Virus record (IMG/VR): IMGVR_UViG_3300008113_000016
Location: 32,514-96,513 of that record
From: a virus
Strand: one strand, 5' to 3'
DNA length: 64,000 nt
Positions 20,013-62,260 of this stretch are shown here, in pieces; the stretch's first letter is position 1, and the number at the start of each line of letters is the position of its first letter. The position numbers and the translations under genes were made by a program. Under the pieces are notes generated by a model. The model saw only the letters and a list, made by a program, of their open reading frames with translations, was not told the DNA's origin and did not search any database.

Positions 20013-20085
20013 GCCTTTATAACTCAGTGGATAGAGTCACTGCCTTCTAAGCAGTTGGTCGCAGGTTCGATTCCTGCTAAGGGCG
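20013..20085 (+). tRNA. tRNA-Arg(UCU)
   Basis: Acceptor GCCTTTA/TAAGGGC, anticodon arm ACTGC-CTTCTAA-GCAGT, GGTTCGATTCC; no encoded CCA. Confidence 0.93.
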
Positions 20086-20103
20086 CAATGAAAGGAAATT
20101 ATT

Positions 20104-37699: not shown

Positions 37700-37957
37700 T
37701 TGGACATGGCACAAAAACAAAAAGATATTAAGACAATTGACTTGACATATGATCAGGCTCATGACCTAGTATCAAAGAACCCAGATTTGTATTGGGATGG
37801 ATACACCATTGTAAGTTGGAGAGAGAATGTAGATGCATTCACAATGCCTAATGGTTTATTCAGAAATGGTAAATGGGGTATTGCCTTCAGACACTCATTT
37901 AATGAGGCAGGCATTTGGAGGGTTCCAGTATTTTATGTTAATAGACGTAGACGGTAA
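37700..37957 (+). CDS. hypothetical protein
   Basis: ORF downstream of promoter with RBS. Confidence 0.6.
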   Translation: MDMAQKQKDIKTIDLTYDQAHDLVSKNPDLYWDGYTIVSWRENVDAFTMPNGLFRNGKWGIAFRHSFNEAGIWRVPVFYVNRRRR

Positions 37958-38222
37958 CTGGAAAAAAGACGCTGCTTGCAAGTCTTTAGATCCAGAACTA
38001 TTCTTCGACAAGTATGAAGAAGATCCAGACTTAGCAAAGGCTGTAGATCAGATTTGTTTAGGTTGTCCAGTAATCTCAAGATGTTTTGAGGTAGGTACTA
38101 GTTTGAATAACTATGGAGTCTGGGGTGGTGTATACTTAGTAGAGGGTGAGCCTGATAAGTCTCGTAACCTACATAAAACACAAACAGTTTGGACTGAAAT
38201 TATGGAGTTAATTAATGAGTAA
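37935..38222 (+). CDS. whiB: WhiB-family Fe-S transcription factor
   Basis: W...AAC...DPELFF...C..CPV...C...GVWGG. Confidence 0.92.
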   Translation: MLIDVDGNWKKDAACKSLDPELFFDKYEEDPDLAKAVDQICLGCPVISRCFEVGTSLNNYGVWGGVYLVEGEPDKSRNLHKTQTVWTEIMELINE

Positions 38223-47151: not shown

Positions 47152-47714
47152 TGGGGTTTTGGGATAGCCTAGACAAAGAAACTGCGGGAGATGCCATCCT
47201 AACAGGATATAAAGGTGATCTTGCAGATATGCCTCTCTATGAAGAGGTACACAACAAAGTTCCAGGAGGTCACTCAGTTCTTGACTTTGGCTGTGGTGTA
47301 GGAAGAAATATCCCAAGCCTAGTAAACAAGTTTGAAAAGGTAGTAGGGTATGACTTCCCTAATATGCTTGATCTAGTTCCAGAAGGGCGGAAACAGGTAA
47401 GCAATGACCCATACAAACTATCTTACAGTAGTAACTGGGACTATGTATCCCTACAGAAATATGATTGTATCTTTGCTAGTTTAGTCTTCCAGCATATTGA
47501 TGAAGAAGAACTAAATACATACTTATCAGATATGCAAGGTATGTTGGTTAATAAATTAGTTGTACATTCAAGAACTACTTTAGATAACGGTACTACTCTA
47601 GTGTTACCTATTATTGAAAAATACTTTGCTTTGGATTCTATTGATTATAAGAAAGATCCAAACAGTGCTGCTTACGATCACTTCATTGCGGTCTTTAAGC
47701 ATCAGTGGATGTAG
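47151..47714 (+). CDS. class I SAM-dependent methyltransferase
   Basis: VLDFGCGVGR, YD......VFQH. Confidence 0.85.
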   Translation: MGFWDSLDKETAGDAILTGYKGDLADMPLYEEVHNKVPGGHSVLDFGCGVGRNIPSLVNKFEKVVGYDFPNMLDLVPEGRKQVSNDPYKLSYSSNWDYVSLQKYDCIFASLVFQHIDEEELNTYLSDMQGMLVNKLVVHSRTTLDNGTTLVLPIIEKYFALDSIDYKKDPNSAAYDHFIAVFKHQWM

Positions 47715-47775
47715 CGTAGTGGTAGCGCATCACCTTGCCAAGGTGTAGGTGTGGGTTCGATTCCCATCATCCGCT
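47705..47775 (+). tRNA. tRNA-Gly(GCC)
   Basis: Acceptor GTGGATG/CATCCGC, CACC-TTGCCAA-GGTG, GGTTCGATTCC. Confidence 0.88.
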
Positions 47776-47785
47776 CAAAAATAAC

Positions 47786-48955: not shown

Positions 48956-51900
48956 TTATTCGGATGCAACTGCTATGTCTGCATATCCTAGTATTCTTAG
49001 ATATGCAAATGTACTCATGAGTAACTCACGGGTATTACAAACGTCACATCCACAAAAGATATCATAGGTATTATAACCATCAGGAACTTCTTCATCCATC
49101 AATTGATTGTAAGCATTATTGAGATGATCAGTTACATATTCCTCAAGCATTATAGCATGTTCCTGCGTAATGTCAATTTTTAGCATATTCCCCAAATTTC
49201 CTGTGAAATTCCAGTGACTTTTTTCACATCATCGTAATGTTTATTTAGATTGGTTTTGAAAGTCGGCTGCATCGCCTGCTCTCGCAGGCAGATGACTAAT
49301 AAGCCTACTCTACTTCTGCAACTTTTTCTACAGTGTAAGGTTGGATTAACTCCAGGATGTTATCTAAGTTAATCTTAATTGGTGGCTCATTATGCTGATT
49401 AACAAAATCCTCTAACTGAATAAAGGTTTGCTCTAACTTTTCCTTACCCTTATCTGTAAGTGCTAGATCCCCGTCAATCAATCCATATGCATAAGGAAAT
49501 CCTAAATCGTTGGCAGCACAAAAGTATGCTACCTCTCCATCATAGCGATGGTTAAGCCATACCTTTGTAAGTGTGGCAGCCATCTGTGTAAACTCTTCGT
49601 TATTAATTTCTTCCATAGCCTAATTATACCGTCCTATTCTAACTCTGTCAAATCTACTGGCTCTTGTCCTTCAGGATTTCTGTAAGACCTGCCAGAGATG
49701 TAATTGTGGTATTCTTTCCACTCATCTAATCTATCATTCATATCATCTGAGAAGGCACGAGAGGTGTGCTGTGCCAACTCTGCTGGAGATAGCCTTCCGT
49801 CAAGGAATGCCTTCTCTAGGTGTTTGCTTGCCTCTTTTTCATTCATCATTGGATTGTATCATATTCCTCTCAGATTGTAAAGTTAAGAAATGGCTGCTTG
49901 CTCCCCCTCAGAAACAGCATACTTAGCGACTTGGGATAAACCCTCCGACAATAGCCGTACCAAGTTTAATTAATTAACGAGACTTGACTTTGGTACCCTT
50001 GCGAAGTGCACTGAGGGACACATTGTCAACGAACTTGCCATTCTTACGAATAACAACACGGTCTGATAGACCATAGCGTGTATCCCATTGTTCTAGGTAC
50101 GGGATCTGCTTTGCTTTCTTTGCCATATGCTTTCTGCCTTTCTAGACTAATTCAGTCTGTCGTGAGTAGTAATCGATGAACTGTTGAATAGATACTACGT
50201 TGCCTGCATCATTAACAGTATTGTTGGTGAGGTCAATCATGGTGTAATGATATTCCTCTTCGGTCCTATCCATTTGATTAACAAGGATGCCAAAACCTGT
50301 CTCGCTATCCCATGAATCACCGATGAGTTGAGATATCATGATTCGCAATGCATAAGGAGTATCTCCCATGGCAATACGACCCTGTGCTGCAGTAAGTGCA
50401 CGGGCTAAATCATAGTTCTTGGTATCTCCGCCCCAATGTGAATACAGTGTTACTGTATTGTCTTCATCTTGTTTAAAATGAAAATTAGTTCTTGCTCCCA
50501 CGATTAAACCTCTTCTTCTATGCTAGTAACTTCTAGTGGATACCAATCAAAGGCGTAAATTTCTACGTCTTCTTCACGCTCTATACGTTCAATCTCTTCA
50601 ATTGCTTCAGCCTCTGTTTCTGCCTCAATCTCAAAGTCGTATAACGTTTCTCGTTTTGCTTCTATCTTATACATTGGCATTGTAGTTTTCCAATCCTACT
50701 AGGGTAAGTTCCTGAATTGTAGCACACTCTGTGCATTTCTCCAAATCGTGTTCCTGAAAAGAATCTCTAATAAGATTATCAGGGTCCTCTAGTTCAGCAT
50801 GGCAACTTTCACAGAAATACCAATTAGAACTAACTTTGATTTGAATATCAGTATCTGCGGGGAAAGGGACCTCAGTGATAAAGTATCCTATTCGATTGAC
50901 AAAGTGCCAGCCTGACCAAATGTAAGAGCCACCGTCGTCACCATCACCATACATCCATATCTGACGCTCTGGAAAACATTTGACAAAGTTGACCTCATCT
51001 CCATATGTTTCCCACATGTAACCATCAAAAGATGCATTCTCATCGAAGGTATTCTTGATAGGCTTATAAGTCTCAAACCACTCATCGAAGTCCATCTCAA
51101 TAAACTTATTCACTGAGTTTCATCCTAACTATGTCATATGCATCAATACATCCAGCAGTATAGTCAACCATTGAGAACTCATTCTCAGATTCATATTGCT
51201 CACGCATTACAGTTAGTTCTTCTATCCTTAACTTAACAAAGGATAATAGTTCTTCAAGCATTTTGATACCTGTCTTTCATTTCGAGGAGGATAAGGTCCG
51301 TATACTCTACAGCACCTTCTAGGTAGTGGTATATTGTATCAGCACCGTCAACGGTTGTCAAACGCTCTTCTAATTCATTCTTAAGATTCTCAGTATAGCG
51401 AATGATCCCCTCAATCAAATCTACCGCAGTCTCTCGTTCACAGGGACCACAGCAAACATATTCGTCTTCGCTGTAAGGTACGGAGCAACCACAACTGTTG
51501 CACCAAGACTCATCATACATTCCCATTGTCTTCTCCTTGCTCATATGGTGGAACATTTACAGCAGGAGGTTCTGAGAAGAATAGATTGAAAGCAACCTCT
51601 AAGCCCTGAGCGTAGCCCATAGCCTCAGTTCTTTCCATAGACAACATAGCGTCTGAGAAACCATCTTGTTCTTCTTCTTGGGCAATCTCATTAAAATCTG
51701 CCCACGCTCTGTCAATTAGTTCTTGTAGTGCTTGTTTGAGGGTCTGTGTCATTGTTTTGCTTTCTAGTAGTGGAAATCAACTGGAACGATATATTGTAGC
51801 ATAGCCTTGTCAGGATTGTCAAGTCTCTCCATAAGATACTTCATATGGCTGGTATGCTCTACACAGTCAAAGAAATGGCTATCTGAGGTATAAAAGTCCA

Positions 51901-52300
51901 TGAGTGATTCGCAAGCGTTCTTAATGGTATAAGTATTCATGCTGAATCTCTGATTATCTGGAATACCACTATTTGAGATATAATCAACCATATCACTAAC
52001 AAACTTATCTGTGTTAATTTCCTTTAATGCACGATTCATGTTTTCAATACGCCAAGACTTAATTTGTTCAATAAGATTATTAAACTTATCTTTGTCAGTT
52101 GCATAGGATATAACTTGTGAATCATTAGGTGAGTATCCGTCTCCAATTGGATTCCAACGACCACCACCAACTACATGCCAGTCAGACCATTCTGGAAAAC
52201 TGTATCCAGTATCATCTGAAGGTTCTAGTAATGCTGAAACTTCTGAGAATGCTTCTTCTTTATCTGGGGCTTCTACTATAAAATAATGAAGCGTATGCAT
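48956..52300 (-). other. cluster of about 11 small hypothetical genes, probably early
   Basis: Tightly packed minus-strand ORFs with AAAGG/GAGG RBS, including 49974-50126 and 50504-50680 absent from the track. Confidence 0.7.
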
Positions 52301-52330
52301 GAGGGGTAACCTTTCTGTTGTGAGGCTCTA

Positions 52331-52352
52331 AGTATACCAAAAGCCACTGACA
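52331..52352 (-). promoter_or_regulatory. PafBC/RecA-NDp-type promoter
   Basis: TGTCAG-TGGCTTTTGG-TATACT. Confidence 0.7.
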
Positions 52353-52430
52353 AATGCAATTCCCGTGACTTTTTTGCTTACCCCGTAATAGTGAGATTGA
52401 TCACATATCCCACCCGCCCTGCATTTCTTG

Positions 52431-52506
52431 CGATTCCGATGGGATTTGAACCCACGATCTCTACAGTGACAGTGTAGCGATTTAAACCAGACTAATCTAC
52501 GGAACC
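52431..52506 (-). tRNA. tRNA-Asp(GUC)
   Basis: Reverse complement GGTTCCG...CTACA-CTGTCAC-TGTAG...GGTTCAAATCC...CGGAATCG. Confidence 0.92.
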
Positions 52507-52512
52507 AAATGG

Positions 52513-52541
52513 TGAGCAGTTTTAAATCTTGCTCAGGATTT
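52513..52541 (-). ncRNA. H-type pseudoknot repeat, copy 1
   Basis: AAAUC-CUGAGCAA-GAUUU-AAAAC-UGCUCA. Confidence 0.6.
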
Positions 52542-52546
52542 TTTAG

Positions 52547-53557
52547 TTATGCGCTAACTAAAGTCTGCACAACTTTTAGCAGACGATTTTTTTCTGCATT
52601 GACCTGTGGGTCAAAACCAGAAGCAGCAGCAAGAATGCTTTCGTTGTTTCCACCACGAGCAGTGCGGAACCAATCAAGGCGTTCTGTGAGAGCGTTAAAC
52701 GCACCCCAAGCATTACCAGCAATCATTCCGTTAAATTGCCCTGTGTAAATATCGTTGATAATATCAACTTTATTTTCCCACTTCTTAAGCGCACCCTTTG
52801 TATCCTTCTCAGGCTTTGGGTAAGCAGCAAGAATAATCTTGTTAAAGTCTTGTGCGGTGATTTCCTTCTCAATCATAGCCTTAGCCATTTTATCGAATTC
52901 GTCCATATAGACATTAGCAAGACCAAGAGCCTCACGAGCAGCAACTACCTTGCCCTCTGCGGTCTGAGTGTGGCGTATCTTGAAAGATTGCTTTACGCCG
53001 TTCTTCTTCTTAATTGAATTAAGAGCAAGATTGAGAGTGTTAGCGCACACTACACGAACAGGTGTAATGCTTGCTTGAATTGCAACAGAACCGTCGTGTG
53101 ATGTGTTGATGAGCAAATAAGTCTTTACAACATCTGCAACACCGTTAGGGTCTAGAACAGTTTCACGCTCTAGTGCAATAGAACCGAAAACCACTTTACC
53201 CTTTTTGATTGAGCCAGCAGTTTCCCAACGACCTCCACCGTCGATGATGTTATCACCAAATGAGAATAAATCTTCATTCTGTAGTGGAACATAACGCTCA
53301 CCAACAACGCCAAGAATATCTGTGCCGTTGTCATATGGATTGGTGCGTGTAACCATAAATGAATTAGAAGCCTTACGATACCCGTCAGGGATAATCATAT
53401 CTTCTAACTTAACATTCCAGTTATTTAGTTTTGCTAGTGATAGCATTTCTGATGTATTTACTTCTTCTGTAAATACTGTGCCTAAACCGTGCCAAGCAGG
53501 TTCTCTGAATGAAGCGAAAGATGTTTCGCCGTTTTGTTGCTCTAAATCGTGAGCCAT
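52547..53557 (-). CDS. DUF932/DUF945 (TIGR03299-type) phage/plasmid protein
   Basis: PAWHGLG, Y..LQN, ETAGS...G, YLL..TSHDGS, RVVCANTL, RHT. Confidence 0.88.
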   Translation of the reverse strand: MAHDLEQQNGETSFASFREPAWHGLGTVFTEEVNTSEMLSLAKLNNWNVKLEDMIIPDGYRKASNSFMVTRTNPYDNGTDILGVVGERYVPLQNEDLFSFGDNIIDGGGRWETAGSIKKGKVVFGSIALERETVLDPNGVADVVKTYLLINTSHDGSVAIQASITPVRVVCANTLNLALNSIKKKNGVKQSFKIRHTQTAEGKVVAAREALGLANVYMDEFDKMAKAMIEKEITAQDFNKIILAAYPKPEKDTKGALKKWENKVDIINDIYTGQFNGMIAGNAWGAFNALTERLDWFRTARGGNNESILAAASGFDPQVNAEKNRLLKVVQTLVSA

Positions 53558-53586
53558 TTTTTTCCTTTCGATTGGTTGATGGTGCA

Positions 53587-53608
53587 ATTATAGCAGTCTG
53601 GGCTGACA
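53587..53608 (-). promoter_or_regulatory. PafBC/RecA-NDp-type promoter
   Basis: TGTCAG-CCCAGACTGC-TATAAT. Confidence 0.7.
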
Positions 53609-53687
53609 TATGTCAAATCGTCCTGTGAAAAATGTCCGATTTGCGTAATGCTATCTTATATAGTGAGACGGGGGCGGGTTGGAAAAG

Positions 53688-53771
53688 GGACAGTTTAAAC
53701 ACATGTCCAGGTGATGATCCAAGAAAATGACAATAAACTTGGATGGACCTTTTAACATCGTGTCCAGGATG
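53688..53771 (-). ncRNA. two tandem H-type pseudoknots separated by a hairpin
   Basis: CAUC-CUGGACAC-GAUG..GUCCA; AUCCAAG/CUUGGAU; CAC-CUGGACAU-GUG..UGUCC. Confidence 0.6.
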
Positions 53772-53793
53772 ATTAGATAGCCCCTACCTAAAT

Positions 53794-54270
53794 TTAAGAG
53801 GAAGCCCGTGCACTGTCCAAGGACCAATCATGAATCTCAACGTTTCCATTGCTAGATTCAATTGAAATCTCATCTTGCATTACCCAATCAATATCGAAGT
53901 CTTCAACTTCATCGAATGGTACTGAGACTGTTCCTGTAACTGTAAACGTTGCAGTGAATTCAATTTCCTTGGAAGGATTAATTCCAAAGTACTCGCATAG
54001 TTCACGCAGCACGTCGTCCTTATCATAGTTTGGGTTAGACCATTCCATGATGTGTTCATCAAGACCGTTAATCTTATCCTGCAGAACTGCATTATGCTTT
54101 GACGCTTGTCGTGCATTGTGTAGTTCCCATTCAATATTGCGTACCTTATCGATAGTATACTCAGGGTCTGAGTATCCATGAATCACCTTGTACGAGATGA
54201 GTGTGTCTGGGTTGTAAGGTACTGACAGTTCTTCTTCTGTCTTATATGTTTGTAGCGACATAAGGGGCAT
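53794..54270 (-). CDS. hypothetical protein
   Basis: 158-aa ORF downstream of a PafBC-type promoter (54298-54319). Confidence 0.65.
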   Translation of the reverse strand: MPLMSLQTYKTEEELSVPYNPDTLISYKVIHGYSDPEYTIDKVRNIEWELHNARQASKHNAVLQDKINGLDEHIMEWSNPNYDKDDVLRELCEYFGINPSKEIEFTATFTVTGTVSVPFDEVEDFDIDWVMQDEISIESSNGNVEIHDWSLDSARASS

Positions 54271-54480
54271 TCTTCTTTCTAGTAGGTTAGGGTCCTAATT
54301 ATACACGAACCCAGTGACATTTTCAACTTGTACCTTAATGAATGTGAGGAATATCACAAAAAGTCGGGCGCAGCATTTGCTGCGCTAACTAAATTAATTT
54401 ATCATGAAATCCAATCACCAATCAAAATTAAAAATAAAATAAAAAATGATAATCCAATTATTACACTTGCCATGTTAACC

Positions 54481-55200
54481 TCACTTCTTACTAGAGGAGA
54501 AGATTATATCAGATTTATTGAAGACGCACAAGGAGCAGGTTACACAAGCAGAACCCTCTTTGCTAATCAGTGGAATAGCCTTTTTATTTTCAGGACACTT
54601 TGCTCCAGGCTTTCCGATAATTTCTTTTAGAGTGCTTTGACCAATAGCAAAATTTTGTGCAAGGTATGCCATTTTAATACCATAAGTCAATTTAAGATCT
54701 GTTGCCTCTTTGATATTCTCACTGTCTGCAGAATAATATAATGAGAGATTATCTATATCCTTAAGCATAATTGCAGCAGACTTTACACGAGTATATACCC
54801 AGAATTGAATATCAGGATGATTTAAGATAATATGCTTCCAGGCGAAGGCATAATCGTCGCTAAAGAAATCTCCGTCCCAGTGGATACGGAATAACTTTTC
54901 AGCATTGCGCTTTTCACAATCCTTTTTGAAATCTGCAATCATCTCTTCAAGCAGCAATTCCATTGTGTCGTGGTCTGCGTCTTTTAGCAAATTCCAATTG
55001 TTAAGTAGATTATCTCTTACGCCCTTATATATCTTTTCTAGTTTTCCTGCGTAGCAGACTTTCTTACATATAGAGGTTTCACCAGGGCACGAGTAAGCCT
55101 TGCCACTAGGCAATCCAAAAGTGTTGGCAATTGTTGGGGTTTTTCCATTAGGGGAGACGGCATTAGTAACTTTCCTATCTTTAGAACGAATGAGGGGCAT
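54481..55200 (-). CDS. Gp88-family (radical-SAM-related) protein
   Basis: F.LP....CPG....C...CYA, FRIHWDGDF, FWVYTR, C..C.LC. Confidence 0.75.
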   Translation of the reverse strand: MPLIRSKDRKVTNAVSPNGKTPTIANTFGLPSGKAYSCPGETSICKKVCYAGKLEKIYKGVRDNLLNNWNLLKDADHDTMELLLEEMIADFKKDCEKRNAEKLFRIHWDGDFFSDDYAFAWKHIILNHPDIQFWVYTRVKSAAIMLKDIDNLSLYYSADSENIKEATDLKLTYGIKMAYLAQNFAIGQSTLKEIIGKPGAKCPENKKAIPLISKEGSACVTCSLCVFNKSDIIFSSSKK

Positions 55201-55215
55201 TTAGTGTTCCTTTCT

Positions 55216-55353
55216 TTAGCGATATTCTACCATACGGGACTGACGATGTTTTACCTTGCGAGAATAAGCCTTTTTAGACTTTACATAGGTAGCAGCATTA
55301 GACCTACGGAGATCCATAAGTTTTCGCAATTCTTCCTCAGTCTTTTTTCGCAT
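55216..55353 (-). CDS. 45-aa basic leaderless protein (not in ORF track)
   Basis: MRKKTEEELRKLMDLRRSNAATYVKSKKAYSRKVKHRQSRMVEYR; ATG 6 nt after TATACT. Confidence 0.6.
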   Translation of the reverse strand: MRKKTEEELRKLMDLRRSNAATYVKSKKAYSRKVKHRQSRMVEYR

Positions 55354-55531
55354 ATTGCAAGTATAGCAAATTTATCAGACATTAGCAAATCAAAACGCTG
55401 TGATAAATCTCACATGGTTTTAATGCTGTGGATAACCTGTGGATAAACCCGCCCGCATTTTTATGCATAGCAATTTATAAAAATACATTTTTTATTTTTG
55501 ATCCAAATAAAAAAAATAAATAAAAAAATGT

Positions 55532-55559
55532 TGAGCAGTTTTGCGACTTACTCAGGTCG
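55532..55559 (-). ncRNA. H-type pseudoknot repeat
   Basis: CGAC-CUGAGUAA-GUCG-CAAAAC-UGCUCA, followed by U-tract. Confidence 0.6.
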
Positions 55560-55585
55560 TTTTGTTTTAGCGTTGTGCTAAACTA

Positions 55586-56011
55586 TTACAAATAACGAGC
55601 AATAGCGTTGTATGTAGAAGTATTTACAACTTCCTCATCTGTCATTTTGAGGATACGAATTGCGTTCGTGATTTCCTCTTTTTGCTCGTTGTAAGTGTGG
55701 GTGTGAATTACCTCAAAATCCTTTTCAGGTTCTTGTGGGAAATCTCCCTGCTTTACTACAATGTCAAAATCAACATTGAGGTTGTTGTTCCAAGAACGAT
55801 AGTTAGTGCGAAGGTTCTCAGCCTTTGAGAAGTTCTCAATAGCCCATTTACCAACTTCCTTGCGCCACTTTTCCATAGCCTTAGTGTGCTTGGCTTCGTT
55901 TTCGCCTTGTGTAGCGTAGTTCTTTTCTAACTCAGCAAGGCGTGTTTCTAGTGCCTTGATTACTTTAGGGGTAGCGATTTTCACGCTAATAGATTTTCCG
56001 TTTCTAGCCAT
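55586..56011 (-). CDS. hypothetical protein
   Basis: Start MARNGK after AAAGGA; promoter at 56051-56072. Confidence 0.7.
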   Translation of the reverse strand: MARNGKSISVKIATPKVIKALETRLAELEKNYATQGENEAKHTKAMEKWRKEVGKWAIENFSKAENLRTNYRSWNNNLNVDFDIVVKQGDFPQEPEKDFEVIHTHTYNEQKEEITNAIRILKMTDEEVVNTSTYNAIARYL

Positions 56012-56476
56012 TTTGTTTCCTTTTCTGTTGAGGGTTTGTCTTGTAGGGGTATTATAGCAGGGGCTACTGACAAGCAATAACCCCTGCTAATCTTATTAGT
56101 CTAGGGCTTCTGAATAGCAAGCGTCATAGAAACGCTTACTATCGAAGTTAGGGTTATCACTCTCAAAATAAGCACAGAACTCGTCAATGAGTTCCTCAAA
56201 TACAATTTGAGGGATTTCGTCTTTGTATGTGCTAAGGATTTCAGCCGTTGCCACATAGTCTTTGCGTGTCATCATTTTATTAGTTTGCCTTTCTTGTGCG
56301 ATAGTATTTGTAAGCCTTGTAACCTGCGTATGCTAATCCTGTTAGCAATACTGCGTTAGGTATGTTTATGTCAATCCATAATAGATTATCTACTTGGAAA
56401 GAAATCCACCAATTATTGCTTATCTCAAATAATACTTTGTTATCCATTTTTACCTGTCCTTTTCTTTTTTGTTAGT

Positions 56477-56504
56477 TGAGCCTTTTAGACACTTGCTCAG
56501 GTGT
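56477..56504 (-). ncRNA. H-type pseudoknot repeat
   Basis: ACAC-CUGAGCAA-GUGU-CUAAAAG-GCUCA. Confidence 0.6.
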
Positions 56505-59357
56505 GTGGATAATTACTTATCCAAATCCTCAACTGACACAGTTGTCCAACGCTCTCCCTTTGGAGTAGTTAGTCGAACTCTCACCGAGCCAGATGAGTTA
56601 GATACGATTTCCTCAATCGTTCCTGTAACGCCACTTTTTAGAGTTGTGAATAAATCGCCAACCTTGTAAGTGTTTCCATTTACTGACATTATTGCTTCCC
56701 TTCGTTTGTTGTTTGTAGGCTTATTGTATCAGGTGCTACTGACAAATTACAGAGCACCCTCTTGGAACAGCCCAATTTCCAAATCTAGTTTTTCATTTTC
56801 GGTGGCTTCGGATAAATCTACCCAACCAGCACCATTTTCATCTATTCTAAAAATCTCTACATAACCCATTTGGTTTGTCCTTTCTGTATGTAGCAATTAT
56901 AGCAAAATCTTGGAGGCAAATCAAATCCAAAACGAAATAATCTCACATTTTGATACAAAATCCCTGTGATAAAAATCACACGGATCTTACTTGACTTACT
57001 GGCGAGTAGGGGGGCGGGTTTAGTTGAAACTTCAACTATATATTGCGATGATCCATCCCACTGTAATTAAAATAAATAAAATAACATCTAACAATTTTGC
57101 ATTAACCAATCGTCTTCAGGATAATATTTTGCTAACGTTTCATCGCTGTAGCATGCATGACACAATTGAATGTCGTCGTCAATTGGTCCTTCCATCCACA
57201 TTTTATTAGTACAATTTAAGCAAGTTTCATTCATACTCTTCTCCCTCTACTGGGTCGATGAACCATTGCAAGTGGTGCTGCTCTACAATTGCGTGTGCAG
57301 GTGCTTGCGTTGAACCTTTATAAGTAATTTGAAAATCACCAACCATTGGCATTTCAATCATACGATTATAATCTTCATCGTAGAATGCGTCAATTGCTTC
57401 AATACAAGGTTGAACCATTTCTGCGGGAACGGGTGGATAGTGATTACCCTTCAAGTGATAGAGTAATTGTGTTTCTAAGTCTAGAACGCTATCTGCTAAT
57501 CCAATTGCTGTAACTGATCCCATTATTATTTCTCCTCTATATCTGATACATAAACATCATTTTTATTTAGTAATCCGTATTTGATATTGCTATCAAACAT
57601 TTCAATAGCAGCGTCATAGTCCTCTGCTTCAACATTTATAAAACAAGTAAATTCAAACAGGGGCATTATTTCACGCTCACATTTCCATTAGTGTAGAAAG
57701 TCTTAGTATACATTTTACCCGTAGGGTCTGACAGGTTATAGGTTGCGTATTCTTTTGCGTCTCCATAATCAACGCACTTAGTCCAAGCGTCTACTGCTTC
57801 TAGTAAATCGCTAACACGCAAAGTATTTACAAGGCTTCCGTCATAGGAAGTAGTTAGAGAGTAATTGTATTCCATTATTACTCACCAACCTTTACTGCTA
57901 CTGTGCGATAAGTATTCTTGAACCCATACTGAGGCTTTACCTCTACAAGGTAAGAGTCGCAACCTTCATACCAAACTGCGTGAGGGTGCTTTTCTGCGGA
58001 GACAATTTCTCCACTTACTGAACGGGATACATAGCGTGTGCCTACAAGTAGGCTTTCGATAGAATAAACATTTGCTGACATTATTTAGTCTCACTTTCTT
58101 TTGTTGTTGATACGGACATTGTAGCAGATAGAACTGACAAGGCTTCTGCCTTGCTTGCTTGACGGGTGGCGATTACATACGCCTTGAATTCGTCTAGGTT
58201 CATTTTTGACCTTCTTTCGTTGTTGTTATAGTAGCAAGTATACCAAAATAGTCTGACATTATCAAATCCAAATTCGGACATTTGGGACACTTTCCGTGTG
58301 ATAAATCTCACACTCGTAAATCCAGTGATAAATCTCACATCGTACATAAAGGTGCAAAACGGACATTTTGCCCCCGCCCGTTTTTTATGCAGATCGTCGC
58401 ATTTTTATAAATTACAAAATTAATTTTTTAATTTAGCAATTATTTTTTCTGCTTCTAATTTTGTAATTATTTCATCTGCGAAAGCAATTGAAATTTCTGT
58501 TTGCTGTTTTTCTGTAAGCGATGCCCACAAATAACCAAGCAAATAGTGTGTGCCACTATCTACATTACCATTACGAATTTTTGTAGACATTTCTTTTACT
58601 TCTTGTAGCAATTCCATATTAGCCATTTAGCCACTCCTCTCCAGAAAAATCACTTTCCATTTGTGATAAATCTTCATCAGTAGGTGTAAAGAAATCCTCA
58701 AAATCTTCTTCTACTTCAGGGGTAGTAAAGAGAGAGGCATTATCTTCATAGTAGTTATCCCAAGAGTATTTTGGGGCTTCCCAAGACATTGTGTAAGTCA
58801 TTATTTATTCTCCATTTCTTTTACGCAATCACAAGGCTCACAATCATAGTCATTTTCGTTACCCCAAAAGATAACGCCTTGACCATTACATTCATCACAA
58901 TCAAAACGCATTAGAAAGTTTATCATTGAGAAACCTTCCAATCTCTCCACATTGGGAGGCGTTCAGGGTCAGTATCATCATACCAACGCTCTATGTTATT
59001 TTCACAAACTTCGCAGAATGTGAATTGGTCATCTCCTACCATTGAGATAGCAGACTTATTAGGTGTGTGAGATTTACACACTTCGTTTATTGTTAATGTA
59101 GTCATTTTGACCACCTTTCTTTAATTTCTAATACTAGTATCCTAACAGATACCACTGACAAATTGAGGTCTTATTTGCTTAGGCTCACTGTGATTTATCT
59201 CACATTTATTTGCTAAGGCTCATACCTTGCTTCTTTATTTAATTTTTCTTATACGGGAAGTATAGCACAAGGAAACGGAAAAGTCAAGTCCAGACACGGA
59301 CAAAACGGACATTTTTAATGTGATGTTCGTCACAGAGGGCGGGTGATCCAAGGCGGG

Positions 59358-59388
59358 TTTTTTTGCTAACCTTTCGATTAGCAAAAAA
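59358..59388. terminator. bidirectional terminator-like palindrome
   Basis: TTTTTTGCTAA...TTAGCAAAAAA. Confidence 0.55.
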
Positions 59389-59896
59389 CTTTTTTAGTTT
59401 TCGATAACTTCTAAAACTTCAAAAGCATTAAACTTTTCTAATTCATCATCAGAAAGTTTTGCAAATACTTTATTTAGATTGAATACTGCTTGCAAATCTG
59501 AATCTGCATCAGTAACGAAACTAATCAAAACATTTTTTTTCATTTATATTCTCCTTTCGAGATAAGTTCATCTAGCATTTTTGCTAGTGGGTCTATTGGC
59601 TCGTCTGCCAAATAGTTTTCTAATTCTAATTGTTTTACGAAATCTATCATTGTTTATTTATCCTTTCTTATTCTTAGCAATAAACTAATTCTGTAGAGTA
59701 TGAGTATGTCATTGACTCTCTGTCAAAGTAAGCCCACATTTCTTGTGTCTTGTGAGACTTATCTACGGAACAGAACCTGTCCCAACTATCACCTGTCCAT
59801 TGGCAGGATAGGCACTTACTTACTTGATGTGATAATACTTTTGTCATTTTCTGACCTTTCTAGTTTAGAGACCTTCTCTAACTTTCTAATACTGGA

Positions 59897-60071
59897 AGTA
59901 TAACACAGGGTACTGACATTTTGAGGGGTATAAAACGGACATTCTAGACATTGTGATGTAGGTCATATGTGATGTACGCCACAGAGGGCGGGTGGTGTGA
60001 GGTATATCACAAAAATAGTTTTGAGACACGCCCGAAAAACGGGTCAAAATGTCAGTGGTAGGTGATAGGAT
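59897..60071. promoter_or_regulatory. divergent promoter hub: two PafBC-type promoters flanking three CRP-type boxes
   Basis: Minus 59897-59918 TGTCAG-N10-TATACT; plus 60050-60071 TGTCAG-N10-TAGGAT; TGTGA-N6-TCACA-like at 59952, 59968, 59996. Confidence 0.7.
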
Positions 60072-60119
60072 ACTAGGTATCAAGATGAGATAAAGGTTAT
60101 CTCAAAGAAAGGAGTCAAT

Positions 60120-60677
60120 ATGACTCACTCATTATCCGTAGTGGTAGAACCCTATCACTCTATGTCCTCTAGCAATACTAAGGATAAGAATATCTTTAGA
60201 CTTGCTAATGGTAACTACATTAGCAGAATTGCTTATGTCCATATGGTAGCCTCTGAGGGATTACTCTCTCATCGTTACCTAAGCCCTAACGAAAGTAAAT
60301 GGGTATTCCAATTTAGAAAGGAGTCTAACTAATGACTACACTTATTTGTTGTTTCTGTGAGAAAACTTATTCTCACGGAACTATGTTCTGCGGTTTCTGT
60401 AACGAATACAAAGGTCTTATGACTATTACAGATTTTGATAAATACTATGGAAAGGTATCTAACTAATGGATTACTATGACGATTACTATGATTATCAAAA
60501 CGATAACCTATTATCAGTAGGTTGTTACTGCAAGATTAATTTTGTTTGTTCTGAATGCAAGGAGGATTACCTATGAAGATTTGGATATCATGTCAGATCT
60601 GTGAACAACCTGTTGTTGAAGTAGATATTGAAGACAGTAAGTATCTAACAGCAACTTGCTCAGAGTGTTGGGATTAG
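60120..60677 (+). other. operon of four micro-ORFs, three with paired Cys motifs
   Basis: 60120-60332, 60332-60466, 60466-60576, 60573-60677 with TAATG/ATGA coupling. Confidence 0.6.
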
Positions 60678-61376: not shown

Positions 61377-61578
61377 TGTTATCTTCTTCTCCTACAAGCG
61401 ACGGAAGTGGACACATCAGTTGTCCCTGACTATGTAATTGCCGTAGATTCAATGCATCTTCACCTTTACCTAAAGCATCGGCAACTAATAGCAACATATC
61501 ATAAACCCTACCTAGCATAATATAAGTAATTACGCCTGAGTTCTCATTAATATCTTTAAATTCAGATTCTGTGCTCAT
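61369..61578 (-). CDS. hypothetical protein
   Basis: ORF in operon. Confidence 0.55.
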   Translation of the reverse strand: MSTESEFKDINENSGVITYIMLGRVYDMLLLVADALGKGEDALNLRQLHSQGQLMCPLPSLVGEEDNNE

Positions 61579-62260
61579 GCCACGCCTTCGCTGTTATAGG
61601 AAACGATTGTAGCACAAAAGATTCGATAGCGTTAGCGTATTCACGAATCTCATATTGCGAATCTTGTTTCTTTCTTAGCGACAAAAAGTGAAGTACGGAA
61701 TTTAGTGAGGCAGTCCAATGCCATCGCACATACATAGCATATGCTGGAAGCAGCAATCTTGCTTGTTCTGGTGCGATACCATCCTCTAATGCCTCTAAAT
61801 AGGCTGTATGCCCTAATTCTGCTAGTTGTCTTAATTTGTTTGTATACATGGCTCCTGTTTCCGCCGAAACTGGCAAGCCAGAGCCTTGCTTTTTATTTTC
61901 AGGAGAAGATCTCCACTCATTTGGTAGAGGTAGATAGAAAATCTCATTTTCAGTTACATACCTCCTACTACTTTCATTCCAACCCAACTGGTCTTCTACA
62001 TGTGCGCTTGCTACAGCATGCTTATACCACTGTCTAGCGACCATAAGAGGTGCGTAGACCTCAAAGGTAAGGGCGCAATGTCTCAGTGTAGAATCATGCT
62101 TGTCACGAACTAAGAAGTTAATTAATTTTTCATCTTTGTCTGTAATTTCGACGCTTGCTTTTTCGAAAGAAGCCCTAGCAGCATTTACCACTTCTAGATC
62201 TGAACCCATTGTATGCACAAGCCCAACGTACCCATGATCTAGCACTTTGATTTTTTCCAT
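61562..62260 (-). CDS. thyX: FAD-dependent thymidylate synthase
   Basis: VNAARASF, H.S...H, VARQW..H, NESSRRY, EQAR.LLP, Q.EIR. Confidence 0.92.
   Translation of the reverse strand: MEKIKVLDHGYVGLVHTMGSDLEVVNAARASFEKASVEITDKDEKLINFLVRDKHDSTLRHCALTFEVYAPLMVARQWYKHAVASAHVEDQLGWNESSRRYVTENEIFYLPLPNEWRSSPENKKQGSGLPVSAETGAMYTNKLRQLAELGHTAYLEALEDGIAPEQARLLLPAYAMYVRWHWTASLNSVLHFLSLRKKQDSQYEIREYANAIESFVLQSFPITAKAWHEHRI

Follow-up and report, generated by a model that had tools for sequence, protein, structure and literature searches.

The stretch of DNA analysed here (the window; 64,000 nucleotides (nt)) spans bases 32514-96513 of a 96.5-kb phage contig in IMG/VR (IMGVR_UViG_3300008113_000016). It carries a block of about 30 small genes at 51764..60466 that appears to be served by promoters of the form TGTCAG-N10-TANNNT, which resemble the promoters read by PafBC in the DNA-damage response of actinobacteria. 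Completeness of the contig was estimated at 83%, and the guanine-plus-cytosine (GC) content was 36-42% in the window and about 38% for the phage overall. Genes for DnaE, DnaB, a divergent RecA, a radical-SAM protein and a WhiB-family protein (37935-38219 of the window) were found. WhiB is confined to actinobacteria and their phages (PMC10202952), and the phage was therefore assigned to the actinophages. A Firmicute phage, as suggested by GC content, Shine-Dalgarno sequences and extended -10 elements, was rejected because the WhiB gene excludes it. Relatives of the phage stem from lake metagenomes, and lake-water RNA libraries contain identical pieces. A mycobacteriophage was rejected as well, since 38% GC and a lake-water habitat do not fit, and the mycobacterial framing of the original prediction was given up for the same reason.

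Predicted promoter sites in the small-gene block

The small genes are probably early genes. Family matches inside the promoter-served block were limited to DUF932 and GP88, and megablast of the block against cultured phages gave no match. A transfer RNA (tRNA) gene, tRNA-Asp-GTC (52430-52506, minus strand), lies within the block and is flanked by two PafBC-type promoters. The ThyX gene (61562-62260) lies just past the block.

The window contains 10 exact matches to TGTCAG-N10-TANNNT, where 1.11 would be expected and the largest shuffle gave 4. All were located at 52.3-60.1 kb, nine of the 10 on the minus strand, and no further exact site was found in the remaining 88 kb of the 96.5-kb contig. 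Three one-base variants brought the total to 13 sites (12 on the minus strand), and GTC was kept in 13/13. When spacings of 6-21 were scanned in the contig, 10 sites were obtained at spacing 10 and 1-3 at each other spacing; the 10-nt spacers vary in sequence between sites while their length stays exact. An extended -10 TG (at -15/-14) was present in 11/13 sites. With the TG included and one mismatch allowed, the pattern gave 13 matches against 1.98 expected, 12 of them at 52.3-60.1 kb. TANNNT taken as -12 to -7 puts the hexamer at -28 to -23. Downstream start codons follow at 6-49 nt, usually after an A/C-rich leader with a Shine-Dalgarno sequence, and TTGNNN was seen 17-18 nt from the -10 at four window sites. 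The sites are very probably genuine promoters of the PafBC sequence class. The eleven sites of the original prediction were all recovered, with their positions and strands, and its placing of the hexamer near -26 rather than -35 agreed with the measured distances. It did not see the form at replication or structural promoters, and this held for the exact pattern. The predicted promoters are as follows (positions in the window; lengths of encoded proteins in amino acids (aa); ORF, open reading frame).

52331..52352, minus strand: TGTCAGTGGcttt-TG-g-TATACT; the ATG of a 178-aa gene without a Pfam match (51764-52300) follows 30 nt downstream
53587..53608, minus strand: TGTCAGCCCagac-TG-c-TATAAT, with TTGACA 18 nt upstream of the -10; serves the DUF932-type gene 52547-53557
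54298..54319, minus strand: variant TGTCAC-N10-TATAAT, with TTGAAA at 17 nt; serves a 158-aa gene (53794-54270)
55224..55245, minus strand: variant CGTCAGTCCcgta-TG-g-TAGAAT (CGTCAG), within a 45-aa ORF and 23 nt upstream of the GP88-family gene 54481-55200
55360..55381, minus strand: variant TGTCTG-N10-TATACT; serves the 45-aa ORF 55216-55353, with its ATG 6 nt past the -10
56051..56072, minus strand: TGTCAGTAGcccc-TG-c-TATAAT; serves a 141-aa gene (55586-56011)
56723..56744, minus strand: TGTCAGTAGcacc-TG-a-TACAAT; serves three small genes (56096-56689)
57712..57733, minus strand: TGTCAGACCctacgggTAAAAT, exact hexamer and spacing, inside an ORF and lacking the extended -10 TG; the weakest candidate, absent from the earlier list
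58118..58139, minus strand: TGTCAGTTCtatc-TG-c-TACAAT; a 67-aa gene (57878-58081) follows 36 nt downstream; absent from the earlier list
58237..58258, minus strand: TGTCAGACTattt-TG-g-TATACT, with TTGATA at 17 nt; two CRP-like palindromes and a AATGTCCG box upstream
59139..59160, minus strand: TGTCAGTGGtatc-TG-t-TAGGAT; serves four small genes (58420-59105)
59897..59918, minus strand: TGTCAGTACcctg-TG-t-TATACT, leftward arm of a divergent region; serves small genes (59394-59847)
60050..60071, plus strand: TGTCAGTGGtagg-TG-a-TAGGAT, rightward divergent arm and sole plus-strand site; serves genes 60120-60466

The mRNA of the 45-aa ORF may be leaderless, as its ATG (at 55353) lies 6 nt past the -10. 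This layout was also seen at PafBC-type promoters of sbcD and DUF222 genes in high-GC actinobacteria.

Conservation in related phages and counterparts in actinobacteria

The published PafBC consensus is tGTCgg(N10)tA(N3)T, with the upstream part at -23 to -28 and no -35 element; GTC is strictly conserved across actinobacterial recA promoters and is read by R46 and R50 of PafB (PMC8635444). Transcription from such promoters proceeds by 'sigma adaptation' (PMC8635444, PMC11804915). The phage sites share with PafBC (RecA-NDp) promoters a -26 element with an invariant GTC, placed exactly 10 nt from a SigA-type TANNNT, and the architecture proposed for them originally was thus matched by the published consensus.

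Related phages were collected via the DUF932-type protein of the block, giving 325 related viral stretches, of which 80 loci were kept (about 80% identity in the DUF932-type protein; 37.7% GC). Spacing 10 accounted for 570 sites on the gene strand of these loci, and most other spacings gave about 3-30. Two further spacings were raised (170 sites at 16, 71 at 5), perhaps owing to extra TANNNT-like words near the -10. The family logo was A-W-W-TGTCAG-t-S-S-c-N3-TG-n-TAnAAT, with no clear -35. In a less circular training, in which GTC, TG and TANNNT were fixed, the free hexamer positions were T in 91%, A in 87% and G in 89%. Bases following the hexamer in the family were ACC (22%), TGG (19%) and TCC (12%) against a background of 1-2%. 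Two complete relatives with terminal repeats had their sites gathered in a single block of about 10 kb. When the upstream regions of DUF932 orthologues were aligned, the result was only moderately informative. IMG/VR was also scanned with a strict 14-base pattern, and only multi-site loci were used since single hits were near chance. These loci were mostly kin of this phage and all had 34-41% GC; a few with genes unlike this phage's still carried 8-11 sites.

Cellular genomes gave the same motif. In an 8.5-Mb actinobacterial genome, 73 exact TGTCAG-N10-TANNNT sites were counted, continuing mainly with TGG and also with ACC; the reversed control gave 0. In high-GC genomes, such sites precede sbcD, recA, 3'-5' exonuclease and DUF222-HNH genes by 6 nt (leaderless) or 86 nt. 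Three genomes of 1.3-1.5 Mb and 37-42% GC carried tandem WYL genes together with TTGTCGC/TTGTCAC-N10-TAnnnT at recA, ruvA, rmuC and nrdD; the recA motif was absent in two neighbouring small genome types that lack WYL. Strong enrichment of the motif was found in six genomes, and all six had tandem WYL genes. None of the conclusions depends on genomes flagged as unpublished. The TGTCAG-TGG and TGTCAG-ACC forms of the phage are those found at cellular recA, sbcD, carD and DUF222-HNH genes, and the link to damage promoters claimed originally was strengthened accordingly, in that cellular actinobacteria use the same motif and following bases at recA and other repair genes. The phage set differs from cellular PafBC promoters in that about a dozen lie within 8 kb of a lytic-looking genome, serve small genes of no assigned function rather than repair genes, and carry the extended -10 TG almost universally.

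Candidate hosts were surveyed in a sample of the class containing the 8.5-Mb genome; a first phylum-wide sample had contained no rhodopsin-bearing small genomes. The class-wide sample included about 17 complete genomes of 1.3-1.5 Mb with shared motif sites. In these, TGTCAGTGGCGCCTG(C/A)TACCTT was found upstream of recA with an SOS box (TCGAACagatGTTCGg) immediately after it, TGTCAG(T/C)GATGGCTGGTAGAAT upstream of carD, and more motif sites preceding the genes for an OGG-like glycosylase and a VWA protein. Upstream of recA in four of the genomes (G731, G689, G628 and G532; loci L222, L223, L213 and L217) the PafBC-type promoter directly abuts the SOS box, so that activator and LexA control overlap at one promoter. 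Rhodopsin was present in 8/8 of the 1.3-1.5 Mb genomes checked, and size, class, rhodopsin and GC point to the acI/Nanopelagicales type.

Tandem WYL genes were found in 23/27 small genomes of the class. In one genome tatC comes after a WYL+WCX and HTH_PafC+WYL pair, in keeping with the common gene order pafB-pafC-tat. In one locus read (L230, G628:C1:653500-661500) trmI precedes pafB-pafC-tatC, and no Pup-proteasome gene was seen in the 8-kb stretch. The lake-type PafB aligned over its full length (E 1e-40) with the Mycobacterium smegmatis PafB of the structures of RNA polymerase (RNAP) with PafBC (7P5X, 9FND), and the RMFERDK recognition helix with its two GTC-reading arginines was identical between the two proteins. 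Among these candidate hosts, one pafBC pair was confirmed by Pfam, tatC and 7P5X. The lake-type genomes held 5-14 exact sites per 1.4 Mb, barely over the control (4-11), and the motif would therefore mark a small regulon there rather than a general promoter form. Retention of pafBC even at 1.3-1.5 Mb suggests that PafBC matters in the ecology of dominant freshwater actinobacteria.

An island of about 28 kb with 7-8 TGTCAG(TGG/TGC)-N-TANNNT sites was seen in streamlined genomes (G532:C1:439654-467143; also G613:C1:386-448 kb and G550:C1:477-498 kb). It encodes the OGG-like glycosylase and small proteins with no known function, and may be a PafBC-controlled damage or defence island.

Reading of the promoters and alternatives

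The sequences show that the sites exist, that their strict spacing persists throughout a large phage family, and that DNA-damage promoters of actinobacterial cells have the same form. We infer that the host SigA holoenzyme together with PafB and PafC is the reader, because no phage activator was detected; a host carrying PafBC, binding of PafBC at the sites and PafBC-dependent transcription are all part of this interpretation. Functional dependence on PafBC, through sigma adaptation of the host RNAP-SigA, was given a probability of about 0.6. The -26 element TGTCAG would take the place of the -35 box at SigA-type promoters, the helix-turn-helix of PafB would read GTC, and PafC would contact sigma domain 4, as in published 'sigma adaptation'. 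PafBC is switched on by single-stranded DNA (ssDNA), which could arise in the infected cell from DNA entry, nuclease attack, or phage replication or recombination; its appearance would then trigger or boost expression of the small-gene block. A match of at least 5/6 to TTGACA was found in 15% of TGTCAG-class promoters, against 34% of extended -10 promoters with no GTC and 2% of random sequence, and these weaker -35 matches would favour reading by PafBC. The original proposal of a host PafBC stood in part: the WhiB gene marks an actinophage and streamlined lake-type genomes carry true pafBC genes, while the host of the phage was not identified.

Regulators encoded by the phage were searched for directly. 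No WYL domain (PF13280, E<=1) was found in the contig or in five complete relatives, with controls matched, and the phage WYL mimic offered originally as an alternative was rejected as unsupported. No match to sigma-70 region 2 (PF04542) was found in the contig (estimated 83% complete), and a phage sigma factor was rejected. No DNA-binding family was matched among the roughly 30 early ORFs of the contig, and no actinobacterial SOS box (TCGAAC-N4-GTTCGA, <=2 mismatches) was found in the window.

Several points weigh against dependence on PafBC. A good -10 with TG (11/13 sites) and TTGNNN at four sites might let SigA alone suffice, and small phage proteins of unknown fold could bind the element. 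A programme that waits for ssDNA is an awkward fit for immediate-early genes. The lake RNA contigs run through two predicted start sites and show no starts, and may include DNA carry-over. The pafBC-bearing lake-type genomes had about 43-53% GC at the loci read, against 38% for the phage. Four approaches assigned no host: a WhiB scan of genome contigs, which matched only phage-like contigs binned into unrelated metagenome-assembled genomes; a protein atlas, which gave viral WhiB clusters only; the phage ThyX, 31-35% identical to its matches; and the phage tRNA-Asp, with at most 79% identity, over most of its length, to tRNAs of sampled actinobacteria. The phage RecA was too divergent to serve as a probe for the host recA. 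Some small low-GC actinobacterial genomes had no WYL gene at all, and a host with no PafBC is therefore possible.

In one alternative, which was considered unlikely, the promoters are constitutive extended -10 SigA promoters, TGTCAG is bound by a phage protein of unknown fold, and the likeness to PafBC sites is mimicry or convergence. Such a protein would be either an activator, expressed from the block's few canonical -35/-10 promoters, or a repressor that closes the block later. TG at -15/-14 and a good -10 in most sites (11/13), canonical promoters lacking TGTCAG near 59290 and 56920, and about 30 small ORFs with no family match, which leave room for a new DNA-binding protein, all speak for it. 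Against it, searches of the phage yielded no helix-turn-helix, WYL or sigma domain, and WYL was also missing from five complete relatives. The element also equals cellular damage promoters in hexamer, next three bases, spacing and TG, the last being found as well at damage-regulated promoters of candidate hosts, and a private phage factor would not account for this cellular match.

A further, improbable alternative has a different host protein reading TGTCAG at -26, either another sigma-adapting activator or a response regulator of the GTCA type. Sigma adaptation has been reported for further actinobacterial activators such as AfsR (PMC11804915), the phage host was not identified, and one low-GC pafBC lineage favours TGTCAC/TGTCGC over TGTCAG. 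All genomes enriched for the exact motif nevertheless have tandem pafBC-type genes, the motif stands at recA and other repair genes, and the GTC-reading helix of PafB is conserved.

The sites could also act as decoys, about 13 boxes on a replicating genome absorbing PafBC and damping the host damage or defence response, with transcription secondary; this was judged very unlikely. The numbers would suit it, with 13 phage sites in 8 kb against 5-14 exact matches per 1.4-Mb lake-type genome (control 4-11), as would a link of pafBC to mycobacteriophage resistance, drawn in one 2025 study and cited in PMC12848934. Every site is nevertheless oriented and placed as a promoter with a -10, a Shine-Dalgarno sequence and an ORF, none of which a pure decoy needs, and titration is compatible with PafBC-driven transcription rather than an alternative to it. 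That the sites are copies of a duplicated promoter cassette in which TGTCAG itself has no function was held to be scarcely credible: the intergenic regions do share CRP-like palindromes, AATGTCCGNTTT and CCCGCCC, but the 10-nt spacers differ although the spacing is exact, the motif is kept in 80 diverged relatives and at loci with genes unlike this phage's, and the free hexamer positions are about 90% conserved.

An extended form of the PafBC interpretation joins several of these elements into a temporal switch, and was regarded as speculative and, taken as a whole, unlikely. The host ssDNA alarm would be the trigger of the phage programme: PafBC, activated by damage to the entering DNA or by the earliest intermediates of replication, would fire the dozen promoters and so express counter-defence and takeover genes. 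Amplified boxes would then titrate PafBC, pulling it off the host regulon, and the phage WhiB, expected to sit like PafC at SigA domain 4, would later displace PafBC and end the early block.

Precedents and further elements of the block

Control of phage genes by the host SOS repressor LexA is known, for example, from coliphage 186 (tum), CTXphi and Bacillus phage GIL01. There, as proposed here, a DNA site for a host regulator on the phage links its programme to the host damage sensor. Those phages are temperate and use a repressor that is cleaved after damage, whereas here activator sites form the whole promoter class of the early block and no LexA box was found in the window. A parallel between PafBC and the 'sigma appropriation' of T4 AsiA/MotA was drawn in PMC8635444. 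At T4 middle promoters the -35 is likewise replaced by another element (the MotA box, at -30), read by an adaptor on sigma region 4; the T4 adaptors are phage-encoded and remodel sigma, whereas here no phage adaptor was found and the candidate adaptor is host PafBC. The WYL regulators BrxR, CapW, DriD, DdaA and SiwR also sense nucleic acid and couple DNA damage or phage attack to transcription, but they control host genes, and none has been reported at phage promoters. In the literature searched, PafBC work concerned host regulons only, and no paper on phage promoters of this class was found, in line with the original statement that no described phage system of this kind was known.

PafBC and its sigma adaptation have so far been known only as a host DNA-damage response. 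If the interpretation is correct, a whole gene block in an abundant lake-phage group is founded on an ssDNA-sensing activator of the host, and this would give phages a new means of timing or conditioning their programme. Such a system would parallel LexA-wired phage genes, with an activator in place of the repressor, and T4 AsiA/MotA, with the adaptor supplied by the host. The phage sites also provide natural variants of the -26 element, ready for use in the established in vitro system of M. smegmatis.

In Streptomyces phage Jay2Jay, the terminal repeat (NC_029098.1 7116-9898; repeat 129209-131991) contains four early promoters of the form TTGT-N3-TGTC(C/T)N-N10-TAGACT, with TGTC at -28. The left-end block of that phage is similar in content (DUF932, ThyX, Lsr2-like). 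These promoters were not counted in the same class, the likeness being looser.

Contigs from lake-water RNA (four libraries of one study) matched parts of the early genes at 52600-59000 of the window with no differences. The highest summed depth lay over the 141-aa gene 55586-56011, a depth that cannot rank genes. Other lake RNA contigs over the block differed at many positions, and related strains therefore co-occur.

CRP/GlxR-type palindromes (TGTGA-N6-TCACA, <=1 mismatch) numbered 16 in the window against 3.4 expected. They span 49213-60011, with 13/16 inside the early block, where most precede a promoter by 40-90 nt. A second box, AATGTCCG(N)TTT, occurred in 5 copies against 1.1 expected, upstream of several promoters, and was also seen in the consensus upstream region of the DUF932 gene among relatives; it contains a GTC but has no -10 at 10 nt. 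Canonical promoters lacking TGTCAG (-35 TTGACT and TTGCCT, with extended -10) were located at about 59265-59300 and 56895-56930 on the minus strand, so that the block mixes two promoter classes; the one at about 59265-59300 has a tiny ORF alone before the next promoter. The G/C-rich words AACCCGCCC and CGGGCGGGGG recur at the 3' ends of small operons, directly upstream of regulatory boxes, and may be terminator or processing signals. These elements and the two further tRNA genes of the window are located as follows.

54343-54358, 55399-55414, 56965-56980, 58297-58312, 59189-59204 and 59996-60011: examples of the CRP/GlxR-type palindrome
53631-53642 (plus strand) and 58271-58282, 58356-58367, 59302-59313 and 59932-59943 (minus strand): AATGTCCG(N)TTT box
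47705-47776, plus strand: tRNA-Gly-GCC
20013-20086, plus strand: tRNA-Arg-TCT
52410-52425, 53660-53680, 55445-55455, 57005-57020, 58375-58385 and 59335-59350, minus strand: G/C-rich words

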